Assembly (NCBI GenBank): GCA_964354285.1
Contig: CAYGYR010000001.1
Coordinates: 326,424 to 390,423, forward strand
Source: an uncultured Methanosarcinales archaeon
Lineage (GTDB): Archaea > Nanobdellota > Nanobdellia > Woesearchaeales > ARS49
Direction of reading: 5' to 3'
DNA length: 64,000 nt
Numbering within the stretch: position 1 is the first letter of the stretch; every line of letters begins with the position of its first letter. The translations under genes were made by a program, and so were the position numbers. Under the pieces are notes generated by a model, which worked only from the letters and a program-made list of their open reading frames with translations, was not told the DNA's origin and searched no databases. Below are positions 1,193-45,274 of the stretch, piece after piece.

Positions 1193-3199
1193 TTAAATCC
1201 TACTGATGAACCCGTGCCTTGGCTCGAAGATGTCTCCTGAGCGCTTCAGCTTCTGTATTAATTCCTCAACCTCAGAATCAGTCATTCCTTTGTGGGTCGC
1301 ATCTCTAACAACATCCTCAAGAGGGATTGTCTTGCCCAGCTTGTTCTCCAGCTCTGCAATAATTTCCTTCAGGATAATTATTTTGTTTCGTTGCGCCGCA
1401 GGAACAGCTGTTGCAATCCTATCAATATCAATTGTCCCAGTCTCTTCATCAAAGGCAATCTGCCTGAGGCAGAAGTCAAGCATCTCAACTGCTTTTCTTG
1501 CATCTTTTTTAGTGACTTTATCTGAAAAGCGCATTTTTGCTGCAGCTTCTGACAGCCTGACAAGGCCCTCAAGCTGCCTCGCAGATATGGGGACTGCCTT
1601 GACTCCGTGGCCTGCTGCAGAGGCACGCATCTTTATATAATACTCCTTAAGCTCCTGGACAGCAGAATCAGAGAGTTTCGGAAAGAGATTCTGGCGTGCA
1701 TAAGCAACATATTTTCGCAAAAGTTTTGTATCCACTGGAGGCGGCTCAACAGTGTTCTGGTGCAAGTCAAGAATAAACGATGCCATTTTTTCATCTTTGG
1801 CAGGGTCAGGCAGATCTTTAATAGGGAAGATTAAATCAAAACGATTGATAAGCGTCGGAGGAAGGTCTATCTGGTTTGCAACAGTATCATACGGGTCAAA
1901 CCTGCCGAATTTCGGATTGGCTGCTGCCAGAACAGTTGTCTCACAGCGCAGTGTTGCCTGGATATTTGCCTTTGAAATGGTGATTGTCTGCCCCTCAAGC
2001 GCCTCGTGCATCGCTGCCCTGTCTTCATTGCTCATCTTGTCCAGCTCATCAATGCAAATTATGCCTTTATTGGCTAGGACGAGGGCGCCAGCCTCAAGAG
2101 ACCAGCCCTGCAGGAATTCATCTTTGACAACAGCAGCAGTAAGTCCTGCTCCAGAAACGCCCTTGCCGCTGACGAAACGACCTTTTGGCGCGATGTGGCT
2201 AATTCTTTTTAGCATCTGAGACTTTCCGCCGCCAGGGTCTCCAACCAGCAAGACGTGCATGTCGCCTCTTATCACAGCCCCGTCTTCACGAACCTTCCTG
2301 ACCCCGCCAAACATCTGCAATAGCAGTGCCTCTTTTATTTTTTCATAGCCATAAATTGAAGGAATTACGCTGCTGATTAATTTTTTTGGCATCAGGGGGT
2401 CAAGAGAGAGTTTTTCAATCTCTTCTTTATCCTCTTTTGAAATGGCGATGTCACTGAAATCTTCCTCAACAGGCCTGACTGAATTTGCCTCAAACAGCAA
2501 GTCAAAACGCGTGCTTTGAATTCCGGAACGCGTGAATATCGGAATTTCTTTAATATCTCCTGTGATAAGCACCCTTGAACCAGGATTCGTCTTCCTTTCT
2601 GAGAGCGGGCTTACAAGGTCATTTTTCAGGAAGACATTGATTCTTTTTGGCTGCGCGCCTCCTTCAATCTGCTCAGGAATCTCTTCAAGAATAATGCCCT
2701 GGGCATCAACAAGATCCTTGCTGATGAGCCTGAACTTCCCCTTTCGCCCGCATGAGCATTTGAAGGGCTCCTTGAACTTAGTGTCAAGCTGAATTATGCT
2801 TAGGTTGTTCCCGCACGATGGGCATTCAAACTTTGCAGTTGTGACCTGGGGCCGCACGTCTGATTTCTGCCTGATAACACCCTCGACACTGAGAAATTTG
2901 CCCAAGTTAACGCTTCTTATGTTTCGAATCATTATTCTGGCAGACTCTGGCAAATTAAGCACTCTAAGAACAAAAGTCTTTGCCTTCGCATCAAACTGCT
3001 CAACAGCAATCTCTCCTGCCTTCAGGAATTCTTCAGGCTGGTCAAGAAGCATATCTGCCAAAGCAGGGTCAAAAGCAGAAATCTTTGCAAAATCAATCAG
3101 AATATATTTTTCTCCTTTCCTGATTTTTTCAAGTAGCTCTGCGTAATAATTCTTTTCAAGAAATTCCTGCGCTTTCCTTATGAGTTCTGTTGCTTCCAT
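1193..3199 (-). CDS. mcm: MCM replicative helicase
   Basis: Zn finger CPSCG..CSCG. Walker A GDPGGGKSQ. Walker B IDELDKM. Arg-finger region SARQLEGLVRLSEA. The 668-aa length is typical of archaeal MCM. Confidence 0.9.
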   Translation of the reverse strand: MEATELIRKAQEFLEKNYYAELLEKIRKGEKYILIDFAKISAFDPALADMLLDQPEEFLKAGEIAVEQFDAKAKTFVLRVLNLPESARIMIRNIRSVNLGKFLSVEGVIRQKSDVRPQVTTAKFECPSCGNNLSIIQLDTKFKEPFKCSCGRKGKFRLISKDLVDAQGIILEEIPEQIEGGAQPKRINVFLKNDLVSPLSERKTNPGSRVLITGDIKEIPIFTRSGIQSTRFDLLFEANSVRPVEEDFSDIAISKEDKEEIEKLSLDPLMPKKLISSVIPSIYGYEKIKEALLLQMFGGVRKVREDGAVIRGDMHVLLVGDPGGGKSQMLKRISHIAPKGRFVSGKGVSGAGLTAAVVKDEFLQGWSLEAGALVLANKGIICIDELDKMSNEDRAAMHEALEGQTITISKANIQATLRCETTVLAAANPKFGRFDPYDTVANQIDLPPTLINRFDLIFPIKDLPDPAKDEKMASFILDLHQNTVEPPPVDTKLLRKYVAYARQNLFPKLSDSAVQELKEYYIKMRASAAGHGVKAVPISARQLEGLVRLSEAAAKMRFSDKVTKKDARKAVEMLDFCLRQIAFDEETGTIDIDRIATAVPAAQRNKIIILKEIIAELENKLGKTIPLEDVVRDATHKGMTDSEVEELIQKLKRSGDIFEPRHGFISRI

Positions 3200-3278
3200 T
3201 TTCTCTTTTTTTATTTTTTAATTTTAATATAGGTTTACCTAATTATTAAATCTTGTGAGCGGTTGTCCAGTGCGAATT

Positions 3279-3887
3279 CTACTTTTGCTTGACTTTTTTT
3301 AGGTTCTCGATCAGTATGTCAAGCGCCCCGTGGACTTCTTCTTCGCTTTTGGTTCCTGTACAAACTATCTTGCCATTCGAGAAAAGAAGGAATGTTGCTT
3401 TCTGGGCAGGAAGTTTGTAGACAAGTCCTGGGAACTGTTCTGGCTCATATTCTGTGTTTTCCAGCTTTATTGCAAGCACGTTGAGGTTAAGATCCATTCC
3501 AACAGAGCCTGCTGCAACAATGTTCTGGATTTTCACTTCTGGGAAGCCCTTGATTTTGACGTTGATTTTTTCAAGTGATTTGATTATTTTTCTGATGCTC
3601 TCGTGCACGTTCGCCATGGTGCGCGCGCCTGTGCACACAATTTTTCCAGAGCTGAAGATTAGTGCAGACGTTTTTGGTTCTTTTATTCTTATGACGAGTC
3701 CTGGGAATTGCTCTGGATTATACTCTGTGTTGCTAAGCGTTGCCGCCATTTTTTCGAGCGGTATGACGTGCCCAAGTGATGCAGAAACAACAATGTTAAC
3801 TACTTTTATCTCTTTCACACCTTTTGCTGGCTTTTCTTTTTCAGCTGGTTTAGCCTGGTGTGTTACTTTCTTTGCCTTTTTAACCAT
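3279..3887 (-). CDS. tbp: TATA-box binding protein (TBP)
   Basis: Two internal direct repeats each carry the EQFPGLV(I/Y) signature (EQFPGLVIRI and EQFPGLVYKL). The track start at 3905 is TTG. The first ATG (MVKKAKK) is at 3887, 26 nt downstream of a TATA box. Confidence 0.9.
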   Translation of the reverse strand: MVKKAKKVTHQAKPAEKEKPAKGVKEIKVVNIVVSASLGHVIPLEKMAATLSNTEYNPEQFPGLVIRIKEPKTSALIFSSGKIVCTGARTMANVHESIRKIIKSLEKINVKIKGFPEVKIQNIVAAGSVGMDLNLNVLAIKLENTEYEPEQFPGLVYKLPAQKATFLLFSNGKIVCTGTKSEEEVHGALDILIENLKKVKQK

Positions 3888-3912
3888 AATCGCACCCCCG
3901 ATCAAACGCTTG

Positions 3913-3972
3913 TTTAAATAGTATTTAAATACTAATACTGAGGTAGTATTTAAATACTTTTGTATTTAAATA
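3913..3972. promoter_or_regulatory. cluster of four palindromic TATA-like boxes (TATTTAAATA) upstream of tbp
   Basis: Copies at 3913-3920 (partial), 3922-3931, 3947-3956 and 3963-3972. The 10-mer is its own reverse complement. The first copy is 26-33 nt upstream of the tbp ATG at 3887, consistent with a leaderless promoter. Confidence 0.5.
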
Positions 3973-4180
3973 TGGATTTTGGAGGTGTAGTACCCCCCTC
4001 GTTTCTTATGGAACTCTGTTGTTTTTGGGTTTTATAAGCCTTGCGGCGCTAAGCCCGTAAATATTGCGGATTTACACCCCCCTGTTTCCCATGGAGATTA
4101 TTATTTTCTATATAAAAAACATAATCTTTAAAAACCAATCACAGTTTCTTTAAGTATAAACTTTGGTGGGTGAGTGCAAA

Positions 4181-4363
4181 ATGATTTTTAGAGGATTTAG
4201 ACCGTATTATGCAAGATCTGGGTTGAACCCCAACAAAAAGGACAGCAAACAGCCAGTGCAAGAACCAGGCTTAATAAGGCGAATGAAAAACTGCGAAGCT
4301 GACGAGCCTGATAAAATAAGAAAGTATGATTCTGGCGAAAGCATAAAGAAATACAATCAGTAA
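4181..4363 (+). CDS. small basic hypothetical protein
   Basis: About 60-aa ORF (MIFRGFRPYYARSG...) with an A/T-rich box (AAGTATAAAC) about 20 nt upstream. No similarity recognised. Could be spurious. Confidence 0.25.
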   Translation: MIFRGFRPYYARSGLNPNKKDSKQPVQEPGLIRRMKNCEADEPDKIRKYDSGESIKKYNQ

Positions 4364-5127
4364 ACTTTCATAACTTTTCTTAAGGCCATACTGAAAATCA
4401 GCGCGAAAATAATGTAGGTTCCAAGCCACCCAATTTTCCAGCCAAACAAATTCAGCATCATCTGCGGCTTGTTGCCAAGCTCAATTGATTTTACTGAAGA
4501 GTGCTTTATCTGGCTTATTGGTGCTTCATAATTTCTTTCTTTAGTTATAACCACGGGCTTGCTAAAAGTCTCATCATTATAAATAAATTCTAGCGGCGGC
4601 GCAGTATACTTTCCCTCGTCCCCTTTCATCTTAAAGACAACCCTGCTGTTATCAATCACTTTTGTTTTCTCGCTCAAAAGAGTTATTCCTTCAGGCACAT
4701 TGATTGTTATATTTCCCTTAGCGCCGTCATTAAAATTCACATAAGTATTAAATTCCTCTCCTGGCATCAACGGCTCATAAGCCAGGTGCGCCTGGAGCCA
4801 TCCGAAAAGAATTATTATTGGAATGAAAGTTATCAATGTTGCCTTCATTGACTGCATCATATACTTCATGTTAGTCTGCATGGCCTTCTTCTGGGCAGCC
4901 ATTGCTTTCTCTGGCTCGTTCTTCAGCTCTTTCATCTGTTTTTGGAGATCCTTTATCTCATCCTTGAGCTGTTTCATGACACTTTGGTTTGTTGCATACT
5001 TGTAAATAACGACGATAATTAAAGAAATCAAGAAAGACATGATTATCACAGCCCACAATGGAGGCAGATTTAGCAGCGGGCCAAAAACAAAATTAAGCGC
5101 AGGATCAACAAAACTAAAGAAGCCCAT
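4357..5127 (-). CDS. DUF106 (EMC3/TMCO1/YidC-like) membrane protein
   Basis: TM helix, then a coiled coil (KQLKDEIKDLQKQMKELK), then TM, as in archaeal DUF106 proteins. It sits at the conserved position downstream of secY. Confidence 0.6.
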   Translation of the reverse strand: MGFFSFVDPALNFVFGPLLNLPPLWAVIIMSFLISLIIVVIYKYATNQSVMKQLKDEIKDLQKQMKELKNEPEKAMAAQKKAMQTNMKYMMQSMKATLITFIPIIILFGWLQAHLAYEPLMPGEEFNTYVNFNDGAKGNITINVPEGITLLSEKTKVIDNSRVVFKMKGDEGKYTAPPLEFIYNDETFSKPVVITKERNYEAPISQIKHSSVKSIELGNKPQMMLNLFGWKIGWLGTYIIFALIFSMALRKVMKVY

Positions 5128-18813: not shown

Positions 18814-20127
18814 TTATTTAACCTTTCTAACTTTTTTGCTGTTATCGGTTAAATTGGTTAATTTTTGCTTAAGGACAGAATAATTCACAGGATTCTTAAT
18901 CCTAGAGCAGAAATTGTCAGGATTGCATACATGCATATCAAGATAGTAAGACTTGTTTGCACAATTTGGCGGCAGGACTTTCTTGTTGTTAGCCTTATGG
19001 TATCTGAGTTGCCCCTTCACAATAACCTCTCTCAACGGCTCTGGGTTTTTCTTGTTCCATGCATCAAGCAGCTGCTCTATCTTTTCATGCTCCCAGCCGC
19101 AGCTTGTCAAGAAATTCACGAGGACAAACAGCGAGCGCTTCTTTCCATCCTGAAGGCCCAGGAGGATCTTCTGTATGCATGGCGGGAAATACTGCTCAGG
19201 AACAGCCTCCTCAGGAGCTGAAAACTCCTCTTGTTTCGTGATCTTGATTTCTTCCTCTTCTATTTTTGAGTCAAAGGCCTGGATAATAAGTTTCTTTGCC
19301 TCATTCGGCTTTGGTTTTTTCTCTTCCAGGAACTTCATCTTTACCTCTACATTCGCAGGGTTAGCGTCGTTTGTGTCAAAGGAAAGGATATTGTTAGGCT
19401 TTATAGGGACGCTTATCAAGCCAGATTTTTCATTAAAAGAATAAGGCATCCTGTACAGGTGCCTGGTCGCGATAAGCACAGTATCAATCTGCAGAATAGA
19501 GAAGGGATCAAACTCCTTATTTTTTATGACCTCATTAAACTGCTTGCCTGTCCTTTTGCATATCTTCGCTATATCCTCGAACTCAAGAAGCTTTTTTGCA
19601 AAAAGAGGCCGTATCATTTCAGCAAGGTAAACCGCAATCTTTTTTGGCCCGTCTGGAAACAAGAATCTGGTCGGCTTTCCGTGAACATTCTCAGGAAAAG
19701 AGGCAAAAGGAACAGCGATGTGAAATCCATGATTGCCAGAGAACTTGACAGCGAGGTTTTCAATGCCATGATAGTTCAGGGCCTGAACAATAAGGTCAGC
19801 AGCAATCCTTGAATAATCAAGAATAGGGCAGTCGACATCAAGAACAAGATCCCAGCCCTTCCTGAGATCATCAAGCTCTTCTTTTTTCAGGTTAGGGTTT
19901 AGCTGCAGGGGGTTTGTCCATAACTCTTCAGAGCAATGGAAGCTTGATGCACCCTGCTTGACAAACTCAAGAACATCCTTTGAGTGCCTTACAACATCAG
20001 GCCTTTTGCCATACCCTTTCTCACCATATTTTATAGCAACCTCTTTATCCTCTGCAGCCCCGACAATAGCAGCGCGGACATCCTCTCTTTTGTAATACTT
20101 CAGTAAAGTGCTCAGATGTATTTGCAT
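18814..20127 (-). CDS. priS: DNA primase: catalytic PriS fused to a PriL-like C-terminal Fe-S domain
   Basis: AEP motifs: LVLDVD (motif I), SGNHGFHIAV (motif II), TRHLYRMPYSFN (motif III). The C-terminal 130 aa carries FPPCIQ plus three further Cys (TSCGW, PPNCANK, HVCNPDNFC), resembling the PriL 4Fe-4S domain. Confidence 0.75.
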   Translation of the reverse strand: MQIHLSTLLKYYKREDVRAAIVGAAEDKEVAIKYGEKGYGKRPDVVRHSKDVLEFVKQGASSFHCSEELWTNPLQLNPNLKKEELDDLRKGWDLVLDVDCPILDYSRIAADLIVQALNYHGIENLAVKFSGNHGFHIAVPFASFPENVHGKPTRFLFPDGPKKIAVYLAEMIRPLFAKKLLEFEDIAKICKRTGKQFNEVIKNKEFDPFSILQIDTVLIATRHLYRMPYSFNEKSGLISVPIKPNNILSFDTNDANPANVEVKMKFLEEKKPKPNEAKKLIIQAFDSKIEEEEIKITKQEEFSAPEEAVPEQYFPPCIQKILLGLQDGKKRSLFVLVNFLTSCGWEHEKIEQLLDAWNKKNPEPLREVIVKGQLRYHKANNKKVLPPNCANKSYYLDMHVCNPDNFCSRIKNPVNYSVLKQKLTNLTDNSKKVRKVK

Positions 20128-38100: not shown

Positions 38101-38658
38101 TCACCCTTGTGCTTTTTCTATTACTGCGTCAACATAAGATATTTTTTTCTCAGAGTCCTCGATCAGGCTTCTCCACCGCGCTAAAACTTTTTCTTTCTGG
38201 TTTCTTATGTCGCTGAGCCTTGTGACATGGTTCTCTGCTTCCATGAGCCTTGCCCTAATGACTTTTGTGTTGGTTGCAAGATTTTTGTACTCGTCAACAG
38301 CAACAAACATTGGCTTAATTTCCCTGGTCATCACATCTTCCCTAGTCGGAAGCGCTTCTCTCAAGGTTCTGTCAAAGATCCTGGGAGCTTCCTCTTCTGT
38401 CATATGAGGAGAGACTTCAAATTCCTCTTCTTTTTCATAAGAAGGAATTTCTGGGAAGAGATCTGCTTTCTCATACTCTGGCTTCACTTCTTCCTTTTCA
38501 TACTCTGGTTTTATTTCCTCTTCAAATTGCATTCCTGCACGTATCTGAGGAATCTCTGCCTCAGAAGGAAATGCAAATTCTGCCTCTGGCGGACTTGGAG
38601 GAGGAGGCAGTGCTATCTCCTCTGGCGCCTTTTTCTTTAAGAATCCAAATAATGTCAT
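38101..38658 (-). CDS. Pro/Glu-rich hypothetical protein
   Basis: PPPPSPPEAEFAFPSE and an EYEKEEVKPEYEK repeat, with a helical C-terminus. Confidence 0.4.
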   Translation of the reverse strand: MTLFGFLKKKAPEEIALPPPPSPPEAEFAFPSEAEIPQIRAGMQFEEEIKPEYEKEEVKPEYEKADLFPEIPSYEKEEEFEVSPHMTEEEAPRIFDRTLREALPTREDVMTREIKPMFVAVDEYKNLATNTKVIRARLMEAENHVTRLSDIRNQKEKVLARWRSLIEDSEKKISYVDAVIEKAQG

Positions 38659-38763
38659 TCTTTAAACACCCCCACCTCTGATTTTTATTTACTATTAAAA
38701 ACTTTTAGGACTATCACGGGATAGTAACAATCATTTTAATAGAGAGTTATTCTCCTAAACAGC

Positions 38764-39780
38764 ATGATTGAGGCAAAAGAGGCATCATGGTACAAGAAGC
38801 TGAAAGATAGCACCGTGCAGTGCTTCCTTTGCCCAAGAAGGTGCGTCATAAAAGAGAACACAAAGGGATTCTGCGGAGTCAGGCAGAACAAGAAAGGAAA
38901 GCTGTACTCTCTTGTTTATGGAAAGGCAACTGCAGTGCAGATAGATCCTGTTGAGAAAAAGCCTTTGTATCATTTTCTGCCAGGAAGCGCAGCATTCTCA
39001 ATAGGAACAGTCGGGTGCACCTTGATATGCCAGCACTGCCAGAACTGGACAACAAGCCAGGCAAAGCCAGGAAAATGGCACACGTATGACTTAACCCCTG
39101 AAGAAATAGTTAAGAAAGCAGTTGAGGAGCACTGCGAATCAATAGCATACACATACAATGAGCCAACTGTTTTTGCAGAATATGCTCTCGATACAGCAAA
39201 GCTTGCAAAGAAAAAAGGGATAAAAAACATCTTTGTAACAAATGGCTTTACAAATCCTGAATCATTAAAAGACATCTGCAAGCATATGGACGCAGCAAAT
39301 GTCGACCTCAAGGCATTTGACAATGAATTCTACAAAAAATACACAGGCGCATGGATGGAACCAATACTTGAAGCGCTAAAGACATACCAGGAGAAAAAAG
39401 TCTGGCTCGAGATAACAAACCTGATAATTCCCCAGCTGAATGATGATATGGAAAAGATAAGTCAGATGTGCGCTTGGATAAAAGAAAACCTCGGCCAGGA
39501 TGTTCCCCTGCATTTCAGCGCATTCTATCCTGCATACAAGCTCGAGGACATGCCGCCAACATCAGCAGCAACACTAATGGAAGCAAGAAAAATGGCAATG
39601 AAAATTGGCCTGCACTATGTCTACATCGGAAACGTCATAACAACAGCTGAAGAAAACACAATCTGCCCTAAATGCAAAAAACTGCTTATTGAGAGATCTT
39701 ACTTCAACATAATCCAGAACAACATCAAGGATGAAAAGTGCCCATACTGCAGATACAAGATAGCAGGGGTATGGAAGTAG
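38764..39780 (+). CDS. radical SAM enzyme (AmmeMemoRadiSam / PFL-activating-enzyme-like)
   Basis: CTLICQHCQNW (Cx3Cx2C). N-terminal Cys cluster CFLCPRRC..FCG. C-terminal CPKC..CPYC. Confidence 0.7.
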   Translation: MIEAKEASWYKKLKDSTVQCFLCPRRCVIKENTKGFCGVRQNKKGKLYSLVYGKATAVQIDPVEKKPLYHFLPGSAAFSIGTVGCTLICQHCQNWTTSQAKPGKWHTYDLTPEEIVKKAVEEHCESIAYTYNEPTVFAEYALDTAKLAKKKGIKNIFVTNGFTNPESLKDICKHMDAANVDLKAFDNEFYKKYTGAWMEPILEALKTYQEKKVWLEITNLIIPQLNDDMEKISQMCAWIKENLGQDVPLHFSAFYPAYKLEDMPPTSAATLMEARKMAMKIGLHYVYIGNVITTAEENTICPKCKKLLIERSYFNIIQNNIKDEKCPYCRYKIAGVWK

Positions 39781-42793: not shown

Positions 42794-45274
42794 ATGGATG
42801 ATTCCAACGCAGAAAAAACAGAAAAACAAGAAGAAAAAATCATTCAAAGAGTGATTGAAGACGAGATGCAGACTTCTTACCTAGATTACTCTATGTCAGT
42901 CATAGTTGGAAGAGCCCTGCCAGATGTAAAAGACGGGCTAAAGCCAGTGCACAGAAGAGTTCTCTACGCAATGTATGAGCTGGGCGTGCTGCACAACAAG
43001 CCATTCAAGAAATCAGCAAGAATCGTCGGAGACTGCATGGGTAAATACCACCCGCACGGCGATGCAGCAGTCTATGACTCTATGGTAAGGATGGCGCAAT
43101 CTTTCTCACTAAGATATCCCCTTGTTGAAGGACAAGGAAATTTTGGATCAGTTGATGGGGATTCTCCTGCTGCAATGAGGTACACAGAAGCAAGGCTAAA
43201 CAAGATTGCAGAAGAGATACTGCAAGACCTTGACAAGGAAACAGTGCCTTTTGTCCCAAATTTTGACGGCAGCCTGAAAGAGCCAGTTGTGCTCCCATCA
43301 AAAATACCTAACTTGCTGATCAATGGAAGCTCTGGAATCGCAGTTGGAATGGCAACAAACATACCGCCGCACAACATGCTAGAGATTTGCGATGGTGCAA
43401 TAAAAGTAATAGAGCATCCGACCGCAACACCAGAAGAACTGTTGCCAATCATAAAAGGGCCTGATTTCCCAACAGGTGGAATAATCTGCGGGAGCTCAGG
43501 GATAAGAGATGCATACAGGACAGGCAAAGGAAAACTCATTGTCCGCGCAAAAATAGCTGTTGAGGAAACAAAAAAGAAAACAGGCCTCATAATAACAGAG
43601 ATACCCTACCAAGTAAACAAGGCACAACTTGTTGAAGAAATAGCCAACCTTGTAAGAGACAAAAAAATTATCGGCATCTCTGACTTAAGGGATGAAAGCG
43701 ACAAAGACGGATTGAGAATAGCCATAGAACTGAAAACAGGGGCAAATTCAGACATAGTAATAAACCAATTAATGAAACACACAAGGCTCCAGACAACTTT
43801 CGGAATCACAATGCTTGCTCTTGTCAACAACGAGCCAAGAACACTCAACATAAAAGAGCTCCTTGAGGAATTCATAAAACACAGGCAACTGGTTGTAAGA
43901 AACAGGACGCAATTTGAGCTCACTGAGGCAAGCGACAAAGCACACCTCCTGGAAGGCCTGATAATAGCTCTTGACAACATTGACCCTGTGATAAAACTCA
44001 TCAAGGCAGCAAAGAGCGCGATAGAGGCAAAACAGGGGCTTGTTCAAGATTACAAGCTATCTGAAAAACAAGCACAGGCCATACTTGATATGAAACTCCA
44101 GCGCTTGACAAGCCTTGAGCAGGACAAGATAAGAGAGGAGCATAAATGCCTCCTGAAGCTGATTGAGCAATTAAAAGAAATTCTTGGAAGCGAGCCAAAA
44201 ATACTTGGCATAATCAAGAGCGAGCTGATTGAGGTAAAGCAAAAATACGGAGACCAAAGAAAAACACAAATTATGGAGACAGAGGCGCAAAGGCTTGAGG
44301 AGGAAGAGCTCATAAAGCCAGAATCAATGACAGTAACACTCACGCACGCAGGCTACGTAAAGAGACAGCCGCTAGAAAGCTACAAGCTGCAAAGAAGGGG
44401 GGGGATGGGCGTTGTCGGGATGGAAACAAAAGAGACTGACTTTGTAGAGGAATTATTTGTAGCCAACACGCACGATCATGTTTTGTTCTTCACAAACAAA
44501 GGAAAAGTGCATTGGCTTAAAGTCTACCAGATACCAGAGGCAGGAAGGTATGCAAAAGGAACAGCAATCGTGAACATTCTGGCTTTGGAGAAAGACGAGA
44601 AAATAACATCATTCATCGCGGTGCCTGGCTTCAACCCTGCGCAGTACTTATTAATGATTACCAAAAAAGGAACAGTCAAAAAGACTTCGCTTGAGGAATT
44701 CTCAAACCCAAGGAAAGGGGGCATAGCTGCAATAAGCCTTGATGCTGCTGACGAGCTAATAGAAGTCCTGCTGACAGACGGAACAAAACAAGTAATCATC
44801 GCAACAGAGCAGGGGATGGCAGTCCATTTCAATGAAGAGGACGTAAGGTCAATGGGAAGAACAGCACAGGGAGTGATAGGAATAAGGCTCAGGCAAGATG
44901 ACAATGTAATAGGCGCAGTTGTTGCCGAAAAAGAAAAAACAATCCTCACAGTAACAGAGCTAGGATATGGCAAAAGAACAGACGTCCAAGAGTACAGGAT
45001 AATAAGCAGAGGCGGAGTGGGAGTGCAGAACATCAAAGTAACTGACAAAAATGGGAAAGCAGTTGCAGTGCAGGCAGTAAAAGATGATGACGAACTAATG
45101 CTAATAAGCCAGAACGGAATAATCATAAGAACACCAGCAAGCGGCATAAGCCTAATAGGAAGGGCAACGCAAGGAGTCAGGGTAATGAAGCTAGATCCGG
45201 GAGACAAGGTAGTTTCAGCGGCAAAAATCGCAAAAGAAGAGCCAGCAGATGAAGGGAATAGCACTAACCAATAA
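42794..45274 (+). CDS. gyrA: DNA gyrase subunit A
   Basis: [27 protein letters not shown] (active-site region). 826 aa with C-terminal beta-pinwheel repeats. Confidence 0.9.

Follow-up and report, generated by a model that had tools for sequence, protein, structure and literature searches.

A conserved array of TATA-type boxes and origin recognition box sequences upstream of the TBP gene in a Woesearchaeota archaeon

Results

Candidate promoter elements upstream of tbp

The DNA analyzed here, referred to as the window, is a 64 kb stretch (GC content ~42%) from a Woesearchaeota archaeon (DPANN, Nanobdellota), and our subject is the region preceding its gene for the TATA-binding protein (TBP). 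An earlier note on this DNA had placed this gene, tbp, on the minus strand with its ATG at 3887, which is borne out by a Pfam TBP match (Table 1). In order of coordinates, the minus strand carries mcm, tbp, a 470-bp non-coding stretch, the gene of an EMC3/YidC-like membrane protein (4357-5127), secY, and ribosomal protein operons. The non-coding stretch contains a cluster of TATA-type boxes close to tbp and, farther upstream, two direct repeats.

The self-complementary 10-mer TATTTAAATA occurs exactly at 3922-3931, 3947-3956, and 3963-3972. These are the sole three copies in 64 kb, where 0.14 would be expected, and none of 100 shuffles reached three. A partial fourth box, TTTAAATA, adjoins them at 3913-3920, so that the four boxes described earlier are confirmed together with their coordinates. 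Two of the boxes are embedded in 14-nt palindromes AGTATTTAAATACT (3920-3933 and 3945-3958). At least three TATA-like boxes within 70 nt are found at this site alone; elsewhere in the window there are never more than two.

The four boxes, termed A, B, D, and E from distal to proximal, differ in their surroundings: A B recognition element (BRE) directly upstream of the TATA 8-mer is present at box B only (CAAAAG-TATTTAAATA) and is missing at boxes A, D, and E. Box B is also the best-conserved block of the tbp upstream region. It fits the local consensus RAAAnn-TTTAWAWA of archaeal BRE/TATA core promoters, and its A-run stands in the same register as in the window promoters of ddl (GAAAACATTTAAATA), gyrA (AAAAGGTTTATAAA), leuS, and rnj. 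Applying the TATA-to-start spacing of 22-23 nt derived from the genes for signal recognition particle RNA, leuS, and hef, we predict that box B directs a transcription start near 3924 and a 37-nt leader containing the conserved Shine-Dalgarno-like GGGGGTG. Box D overlaps this predicted start, and box E occupies +5 to +12 relative to it. Sites that overlap the start site are in the usual position for archaeal repression. The earlier note had regarded the proximal box as the only one positioned as a promoter. Indeed, box E lies 24 nt from the ATG and could instead drive a leaderless mRNA, in which case its position would be about -33 to -25. This part of the claim fits; its exclusivity is questionable, as such a transcript would leave out the conserved Shine-Dalgarno sequence and the conserved BRE+TATA combination belongs to the third box (3962-3947).

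The direct repeats are origin recognition box sequences

On the tbp strand, the direct repeats read TTCCATAAGAAACGAGGGGGGT (3992-4015) and CTCCATGGGAAACAGGGGGGT (4074-4100), with starts 83 nt apart; the first has exactly the ends given earlier, and the second starts at 4074 rather than at 4075, one base off. By sequence, both are canonical archaeal origin recognition boxes (ORBs; tTCCAnnGGAAAc-n-GGGGGGT) and hence predicted recognition sites of the initiator Orc1/Cdc6. Each contains the dyad-like core TTCCA-N2-GGAAA (CTCCATGGGAAAC and TTCCATAAGAAAC) and, 1-4 nt after the core, a G-run or G-string (AGGGGGGT and GAGGGGGGT). From 46 equivalent tbp-upstream sites in relatives we built a 26-nt ORB matrix with the consensus ATTTCCACAGGAAATGAAGGGGGT. 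The core consensus of these sites is TTCCACAGGAAAT, Pyrococcus furiosus ORB1 reads GTTCCAGTGGAAAT, and the two share the TTCCA-NN-GGAAAT core and the G-run; P. furiosus ORB1 is known from Cdc6/Orc1 gel shifts and corresponds to GTTCCAGTGGAAATGAAACTCTGGGGGG when reverse-complemented (PMC1904270). The core of the proximal repeat, ORB2, matches P. furiosus ORB1 (PMC1904270). The next best match to the matrix in the window scores 11.3 bits, far below the pair upstream of tbp (Table 1), and the pattern GAAAC-N0-4-GGGGG has no further occurrence at 0.22 expected: The window holds no ORB other than these two.

As a positive control, metagenome contigs were scanned blindly with a degenerate ORB pattern and then analyzed with the ORB matrix and a hidden Markov model (HMM) of Orc1. 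Matrix matches adjoin orc1/cdc6 genes in ~25 of 120 metagenome loci, often as inverted pairs, and the matrix likewise matches the regions upstream of orc1 in four Woesearchaeota loci (L201, L203, L205, L210). Because the matrix lands beside orc1/cdc6 genes in a blind scan, we identify the repeats as Orc1/Cdc6 recognition sites by sequence. This agrees in kind with the earlier suggestion that the repeats might be the operator of a second regulator.

The boxes resemble the Orc1-1/oriC1-type ORBs of Sulfolobus, Pyrococcus, Aeropyrum, and haloarchaea in having a TTCCA-NN-GGAAA(T/C) core followed by a G-run, with a length of ~22-26 bp. They differ from them in arrangement: The boxes at tbp are neither located beside orc1 nor inverted, but occur as one or two direct copies that point toward tbp and are locked to the promoter.

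Table 1. Coordinates of the elements upstream of tbp and of the adjacent genes in the window.
Feature	Position	Strand	Description
Box B, BRE+TATA core promoter candidate for tbp	3945..3962	-	CAAAAG + TATTTAAATA + CT; ARAGYHTTTAWAWA in 40/80 tbp loci
Box A, without BRE in register	3962..3974	-	CATATTTAAATAC; centred 16 nt upstream of box B; (C/T)TATTTAAAyA in most relatives
Box D, 14-nt palindrome, without BRE	3920..3933		AGTATTTAAATACT; kept as ATTTAAATAC in close relatives
Box E, partial box, without BRE	3912..3920	-	TATTTAAAC; also in L007, L010, L207-L209
ORB2, proximal	3990..4015	-	aGTTCCATAAGAAACGAGGGGGGTac; 27.1 bits; 55 nt upstream of box B, as in 14 other loci
ORB1, distal	4073..4098	-	atCTCCATGGGAAACAGGGGGGTGta; 24.3 bits; position kept in L005-L010, L018, L024, L040, L048, L207-L209
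Inter-ORB spacer	4016..4072		Length conserved, sequence variable (two-ORB comparison); has GCTTATAAAA at 4039-4030 (-)
Near-palindrome directly upstream of ORB1	4104..4119		TTTTCTATATAAAAAA (consensus TTTTCTATATAGAAAA); in relatives at the centre of orc1-adjacent origins
Shine-Dalgarno-like GGGGGTG	3893..3899	-	6-12 nt upstream of tbp ATG; read from sequence; G-run at same place kept in relatives
tbp, TATA-binding protein, 202 aa	3279..3887	-	Pfam PF00352, E = 2e-60, two repeats
mcm, directly downstream of tbp	1193..3199	-	Pfam MCM domains

Conservation and geometry among Woesearchaeota

To place these elements in a comparative context, we used 80 loci around tbp orthologues with 71-94% identity to the window tbp (flanks of 4 kb, 587 kb in total, tbp start codons assigned automatically). 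In the 135 nt before the tbp ATG, the mean number of TATA-like boxes is 2.95 (75 loci), with at least three boxes in 64% of loci. The corresponding values are 0.49 upstream of 306 other open reading frames (ORFs) of the same loci, a control that includes operon-internal genes, and 0.36 in dinucleotide shuffles, which cover composition. The boxes prefer a spacing of 16-18 nt, and alignment on the best-conserved block yields a common layout of box A, box B 16 nt later (CAAAAGTATTTAWAWA), and then one to three further boxes. Across the whole archaeal order, such a cluster of TBP-type sites is conserved and specific to tbp. Retention of multiple boxes in relatives was the check proposed in the earlier note, and a tbp-specific cluster is what its idea of autoregulation or a decoy array predicts.

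The ORBs are similarly tied to tbp. At a threshold of 12 bits, 61 of the 67 matrix matches in the 587 kb are sense-strand sites no more than 450 nt upstream of tbp; among the six outliers, one (L060) is a coordinate artefact and also upstream of tbp. At least 47 of the 80 loci have one or two ORBs upstream of tbp, always oriented toward it. No inverted ORB partner was detected on either side of tbp in the window and the 80 loci at thresholds down to 5-7 bits, and the antisense matches are merely the palindromic cores of the sense ORBs. Of the 13 two-ORB sequences (the window and 12 loci), nine have starts exactly 83 nt apart, and a further three have them 84-88 nt apart. Box B follows the proximal ORB at a distance of 55 nt in 15 loci including the window, of 57 nt in three, and of 69 nt in 11; between box B and the ATG there are 53 to 225 nt. 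This fixed geometry between ORB and BRE/TATA argues for a joint function at the promoter rather than a chance neighbourhood.

The window's close relatives L207-L209, whose MCM proteins are 76-78% identical to that of the window, keep both the ORB pair and the TATA array before tbp. A separate assembly of the same species (L212, a 6.7-kb contig) has zero substitutions in the aligned columns ~3912-4077, which span the TATA array, ORB2, and the spacer; there is one substitution in the G-string of ORB1, two in the tbp leader, and several further upstream. Exact look-ups of ORF228 and MCM of the window gave no record. L201, L203, and L205 have the TATA array before tbp and no ORB at that gene. Because the array persists where tbp lacks ORBs, array and ORBs are separable modules.

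Relation to the replication origin

In the Woesearchaeota loci L201, L203, and L205, which were found via Woesearchaeota-labelled Orc1 proteins with a five-sequence profile, the gene order is tbp, mcm, OB-fold protein, SpoIIM, an intergenic region of 0.5-1.3 kb, orc1, and polD DP1 and DP2. (An Orc1 search with a Pacearchaeota query returned Pacearchaeota only; the five-sequence profile reached Woesearchaeota.) With oriC in the intergenic region, these genes form a Woesearchaeota replication island. The intergenic region carries inverted ORBs whose TTCCA ends face the centre, for example in L203 at 6992-, 7125- and 7841+, 7974+. In L207-L209 (9,000-22,000), orc1 lies ~11.7 kb from the tbp ORBs on the other strand, following inversion of a block from orc1 to eIF2-beta that characterizes the clade of the window. 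The region upstream of orc1 in this arrangement is seen in L210, which encodes an Orc1 with 76% identity to that of L207; its order is ORB(-), ~250 bp of extremely AT-rich DNA with a palindrome, ORB(+), and orc1. Short tandem-like repeats consisting of A and T only (TATTATATTATAT..., AATAATAAATAAT...) surround the central palindrome of orc1-adjacent origins (L210 4640-4870, L201 7560-7760).

Directly upstream of ORB1, the tbp region of the window contains a near-palindrome (Table 1). We counted copies of its consensus TTTTCTATATAGAAAA with up to two mismatches: Seven of the eight copies in the 80 tbp loci lie upstream of tbp, and 10 of the 12 in other loci have an ORB no more than 400 nt away. 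The inverted ORBs of the canonical origins in L119, L203, L205, and L210 enclose a copy. The tbp element accordingly looks like an origin centre with a right arm, that is, the palindrome and two direct ORBs pointing toward the downstream gene, as in L203 (7841+, 7974+ before orc1). It differs from a canonical archaeal oriC in having neither a left arm nor the AT-rich stretch of 250-700 bp: AT-rich DNA at tbp amounts to ~60 bp of TATA boxes and ~40 bp around the palindrome, compared with ~250 bp in L210 and ~500-700 bp in L201 and L203. A likeness of the palindrome to the Sulfolobus ucm motif (ATTATACAAAC) was considered and discarded, as the sequences are unrelated and only the position in the origin is analogous.

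In L203 (7974-7999) and L205 (7975-8000), the right-arm ORB abuts the ATG of orc1 with its G-run GGGGGTG at the Shine-Dalgarno position, which is the position expected for autorepression of orc1. With the same ORB arm before it, tbp would come under the same initiator. An ORB-like sequence, TTCACCTGAAATGGGGGTGT, is likewise found just before tbp in L001, L012, and L014.

The tbp region of the window has neither inverted flanking ORBs nor an adjacent orc1/cdc6 gene. No orc1 gene was found in the 64 kb (tblastn with 1FNN; three-sequence HMM), which extend only 4 kb to one side of the tbp control region and end 1.2 kb past mcm; the same search also covered the 80 tbp loci, some of which end just short of orc1, and the negative result applies to the window only. 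For the Woesearchaeales, a single-copy ORC1 has been reported and an ORC1-adjacent origin assumed, not mapped (preprint 10.64898/2026.05.13.725050). Origin firing in Sulfolobus depends on each of the two inverted ORBs (PMC12141716). Judging from the relatives, the tbp region is probably not the origin; the canonical origin would lie beside orc1, and the tbp element would be an accessory ORB site. As another candidate origin, we considered the gene-strand switch and cumulative GC-skew minimum at 38658-38764 and rejected it: This intergenic region of 106 bp is devoid of ORBs. The GC skew around it simply follows gene orientation.

ORBs outside origins also occur in Pacearchaeota, where two strong direct copies 43 nt apart reside inside a conserved coiled-coil ORF (MEKEQIK.../MDEEKLRQAF...; L094 13023-13091, L102 5773-5841, L123 1395-1463, L145 56-124, L199 48-116). 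This doublet adjoins an 88-aa ORF and lies 3-7 kb from orc1, which has its own, weaker inverted ORBs.

Downstream and neighbouring genes

The tbp-mcm gene pair is kept in ~77 of the 80 loci. In the window, the spacer between the two genes measures 79 nt and lacks a T5 run on the coding strand, so that read-through from tbp into mcm would be possible and mcm may share the regulation of tbp. The spacer also contains the motif TCGCACTGGACAACCGCTCACAAG (GCACTGGACA-N3-5-GC(T/G)CA) at 3253-3276 (-), between the tbp stop codon and the TATA box of mcm. Many Woesearchaeota loci keep it at this place, ~10 nt ahead of the TATA box, and it is a candidate mcm operator.

On the other side of the control region, a 66-aa ORF (4163-4363 (+)) without Pfam match may not be a gene; the ~200-nt segment holding it is found in this species only (including L212) and is absent from the close relatives L207 and L209. 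Elsewhere in the window, a single ORF gives matches to the small as well as to the large subunit of primase (a fused PriS-PriL), and a DNA gyrase A gene is present (18814-20127 (-) and 42794-45274 (+), respectively).

Discussion

A proposed composite control region

What the sequences establish is which elements are present, how these are conserved and arranged, and that relatives possess a canonical origin at another place. With moderate confidence, we read the segment 3906-4119 as a composite control region of tbp and, possibly by read-through, of mcm, in which the TATA array would mediate autoregulation by TBP and a half origin would mediate regulation by, or titration of, Orc1/Cdc6. The interpretation given in the earlier note is thereby supported in part.

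A mechanism for such a region can be outlined as follows. Box B and its BRE would recruit TBP and TFB and thereby initiate transcription of tbp. The symmetric boxes A, D, and E, which are devoid of a BRE, would bind TBP without a productive orientation of TFB. Once TBP is abundant and fills these boxes, promoter and start site would become crowded, which would hinder the assembly of RNA polymerase at box B or its escape and result in negative feedback on the TBP level. Archaeal repression by occlusion of the basal factors offers a parallel, but here the proposed occluder would be TBP itself, sitting on TATA copies without BRE. Farther upstream, the one Orc1/Cdc6 that these archaea possess would bind the two phased ORBs, whose distance of 83 bp corresponds to eight helical turns and which are centred ~52 nt upstream of the TATA box of box B. 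The bound initiator would modulate the tbp(-mcm) promoter, be titrated, or both, so that initiator status would be linked to the supply of TBP and helicase. The arrangement suggests a link between basal transcription, the MCM helicase gene next to tbp, and the start of replication.

A more specific version is offered tentatively, as a possibility that we consider rather improbable: A half origin would have been copied before tbp-mcm, and Orc1/Cdc6 together with TBP on the surplus boxes would set the levels of TBP and helicase in an initiator-TBP-MCM circuit with decoy-box feedback. We know of no description of such a circuit in archaea, and a limited full-text search of the literature brought up neither an archaeal tbp promoter preceded by a TATA array nor autoregulation of TBP or its action as an occluder on TATA copies without BRE. 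In a bolder variant, the palindromic TATA-like motif at origin centres would mean that TBP also acts in origin function.

Precedents exist for initiator sites that do not fire and lie a few kb from a real origin. In Pyrococcus, a cluster of ORBs is located outside the origin, in dp1 (PMC1904270); in Haloarcula hispanica, oriC2D with its 11 boxes restrains the origin, probably by titration (PMC3936714); and bacterial datA and DnaA-box promoters are comparable. The dp1 and oriC2D-type sites have been proposed to titrate the initiator or to regulate genes (PMC1904270, PMC3936714), and binding sites outside origins as well as altered transcript profiles have been reported for the Orc1 proteins of Sulfolobus (PMC3607249). 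The tbp locus differs from these cases in having two sites that are situated upstream of a promoter at a fixed distance from its BRE/TATA, and its target is the basal factor TBP, with mcm behind it, rather than an initiator or a polymerase.

Several considerations weigh against a composite control region as outlined here. The binding of the proteins, the sign of their effects, and the position of the transcription start are all inferred from the sequence. About 40% of the related loci have no ORB upstream of tbp, so that the ORBs are dispensable. Two ORBs are few for a titration locus when compared with the 11 boxes of oriC2D. The evidence for a canonical origin comes from relatives and not from the genome of the window itself, and the ORB matrix was trained on tbp-upstream sites, which biases any comparison of their scores with those of origin ORBs. 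Control of mcm from the tbp region is uncertain because mcm has its own TATA box and a T5 run follows tbp in half of the loci. Finally, box E is placed like the leaderless TATA box of most window genes, and the array could consist of alternative promoters instead of decoys.

Alternative explanations

We considered five alternatives, in order of decreasing weight: alternative promoters, a pure Orc1 sink, a real (second) origin, a dedicated regulator, and a small RNA. The TATA boxes might be alternative or reinforcing promoters of a highly expressed gene that yield leadered and leaderless transcripts without any feedback by TBP. The short distance of box E to the ATG is matched at hef and leuS, two genes that appear to be leaderless; the starts set by boxes C and D in relatives would fall just before or after the Shine-Dalgarno sequence; and archaeal TATA boxes are symmetric, TBP alone not setting direction. 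What speaks against a set of working promoters is that the BRE is in register at box B only, that the spacing of 16-18 nt is too tight for independent pre-initiation complexes, and that no other gene of the window or the loci, including those for ribosomal proteins and RNAs, has a comparable array. We therefore regard this explanation as possible but not probable. Considering the ORBs instead, the pair could be a mere sink for Orc1/Cdc6 in the manner of datA or oriC2D, with no effect on tbp transcription. Clusters of ORBs outside origins, as in Pyrococcus and, with a negative regulatory role, in Haloarcula, and the strong doublets inside a gene near orc1 of Pacearchaeota would be in line with a sink, as would the finding that the tbp ORBs outscore the origin ORBs of relatives, a comparison biased by the tbp-trained matrix. 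A sink, however, requires neither a strict orientation toward tbp nor a fixed distance to its promoter, and one or two sites provide little capacity, which renders this alternative unlikely.

Slightly less likely still is that the tbp region acts as a replication origin of its own (the chromosomal oriC or an additional one), with the ORBs recruiting Orc1/Cdc6 and the AT-rich TATA array serving as unwinding element. The ORBs are genuine, an origin-centre palindrome adjoins ORB1, ~60 bp of ~80% AT sequence follow ORB2, mcm is adjacent, the window lacks an orc1 gene, and the origin of Nanobdellota has so far been assumed rather than mapped. Yet an inverted ORB is found on neither side in the window or the 80 loci, while both arms are required in Sulfolobus; relatives own a complete canonical origin beside orc1; and ~40% of relatives have no ORB at tbp but retain the TATA array. 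Moreover, the ORB is held at a fixed distance from a BRE/TATA promoter, and a fork leaving the tbp site would run head-on into transcription of the ribosomal protein operons to its right. The palindromes AGTATTTAAATACT could also be operators of a dedicated dimeric regulator other than TBP, given that two are perfect over 14 nt and a third is near-perfect and that the 10-mer TATTTAAATA is unique to this site in the window. We consider this highly doubtful, since the palindrome flanks are not conserved outside close relatives and the boxes drift within the TATA consensus (TTTATAAA, TTTTAAA, TTTAAATA) instead of preserving one operator sequence. A small structured RNA encoded by the GC-richer part (3975-4100), as the earlier note had entertained for the repeats, is effectively excluded. 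Modest fold z-scores (-2.5 on the plus strand, -1.7 on the minus strand) are the only hint of it; Rfam yields no match at the gathering threshold or at E = 1, ARAGORN finds no tRNA, and the fold of a 13-sequence alignment comprises four pairs (-1.97 kcal/mol) and lacks compensatory changes. Only the two ORB cores are conserved, and the spacer between them is of fixed length and variable sequence.

Significance

The 215-bp fragment upstream of tbp bears on two questions, namely whether Orc1/Cdc6 regulates genes outside origins and whether archaeal TBP controls its own level. For the former, hints from chromatin immunoprecipitation sequencing in Sulfolobus have so far been mentioned as unpublished data only. 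The ORB matrix, validated for Nanobdellota/DPANN, places the canonical origin beside orc1 in Woesearchaeota, a position that was simply assumed in a recent set of 208 complete genomes, and also reveals a conserved origin-centre palindrome in these lineages. To our knowledge, cell-cycle control in DPANN archaea is essentially unknown. As these archaea are uncultured, conserved cis-elements such as those upstream of tbp are among the few handles available on it.

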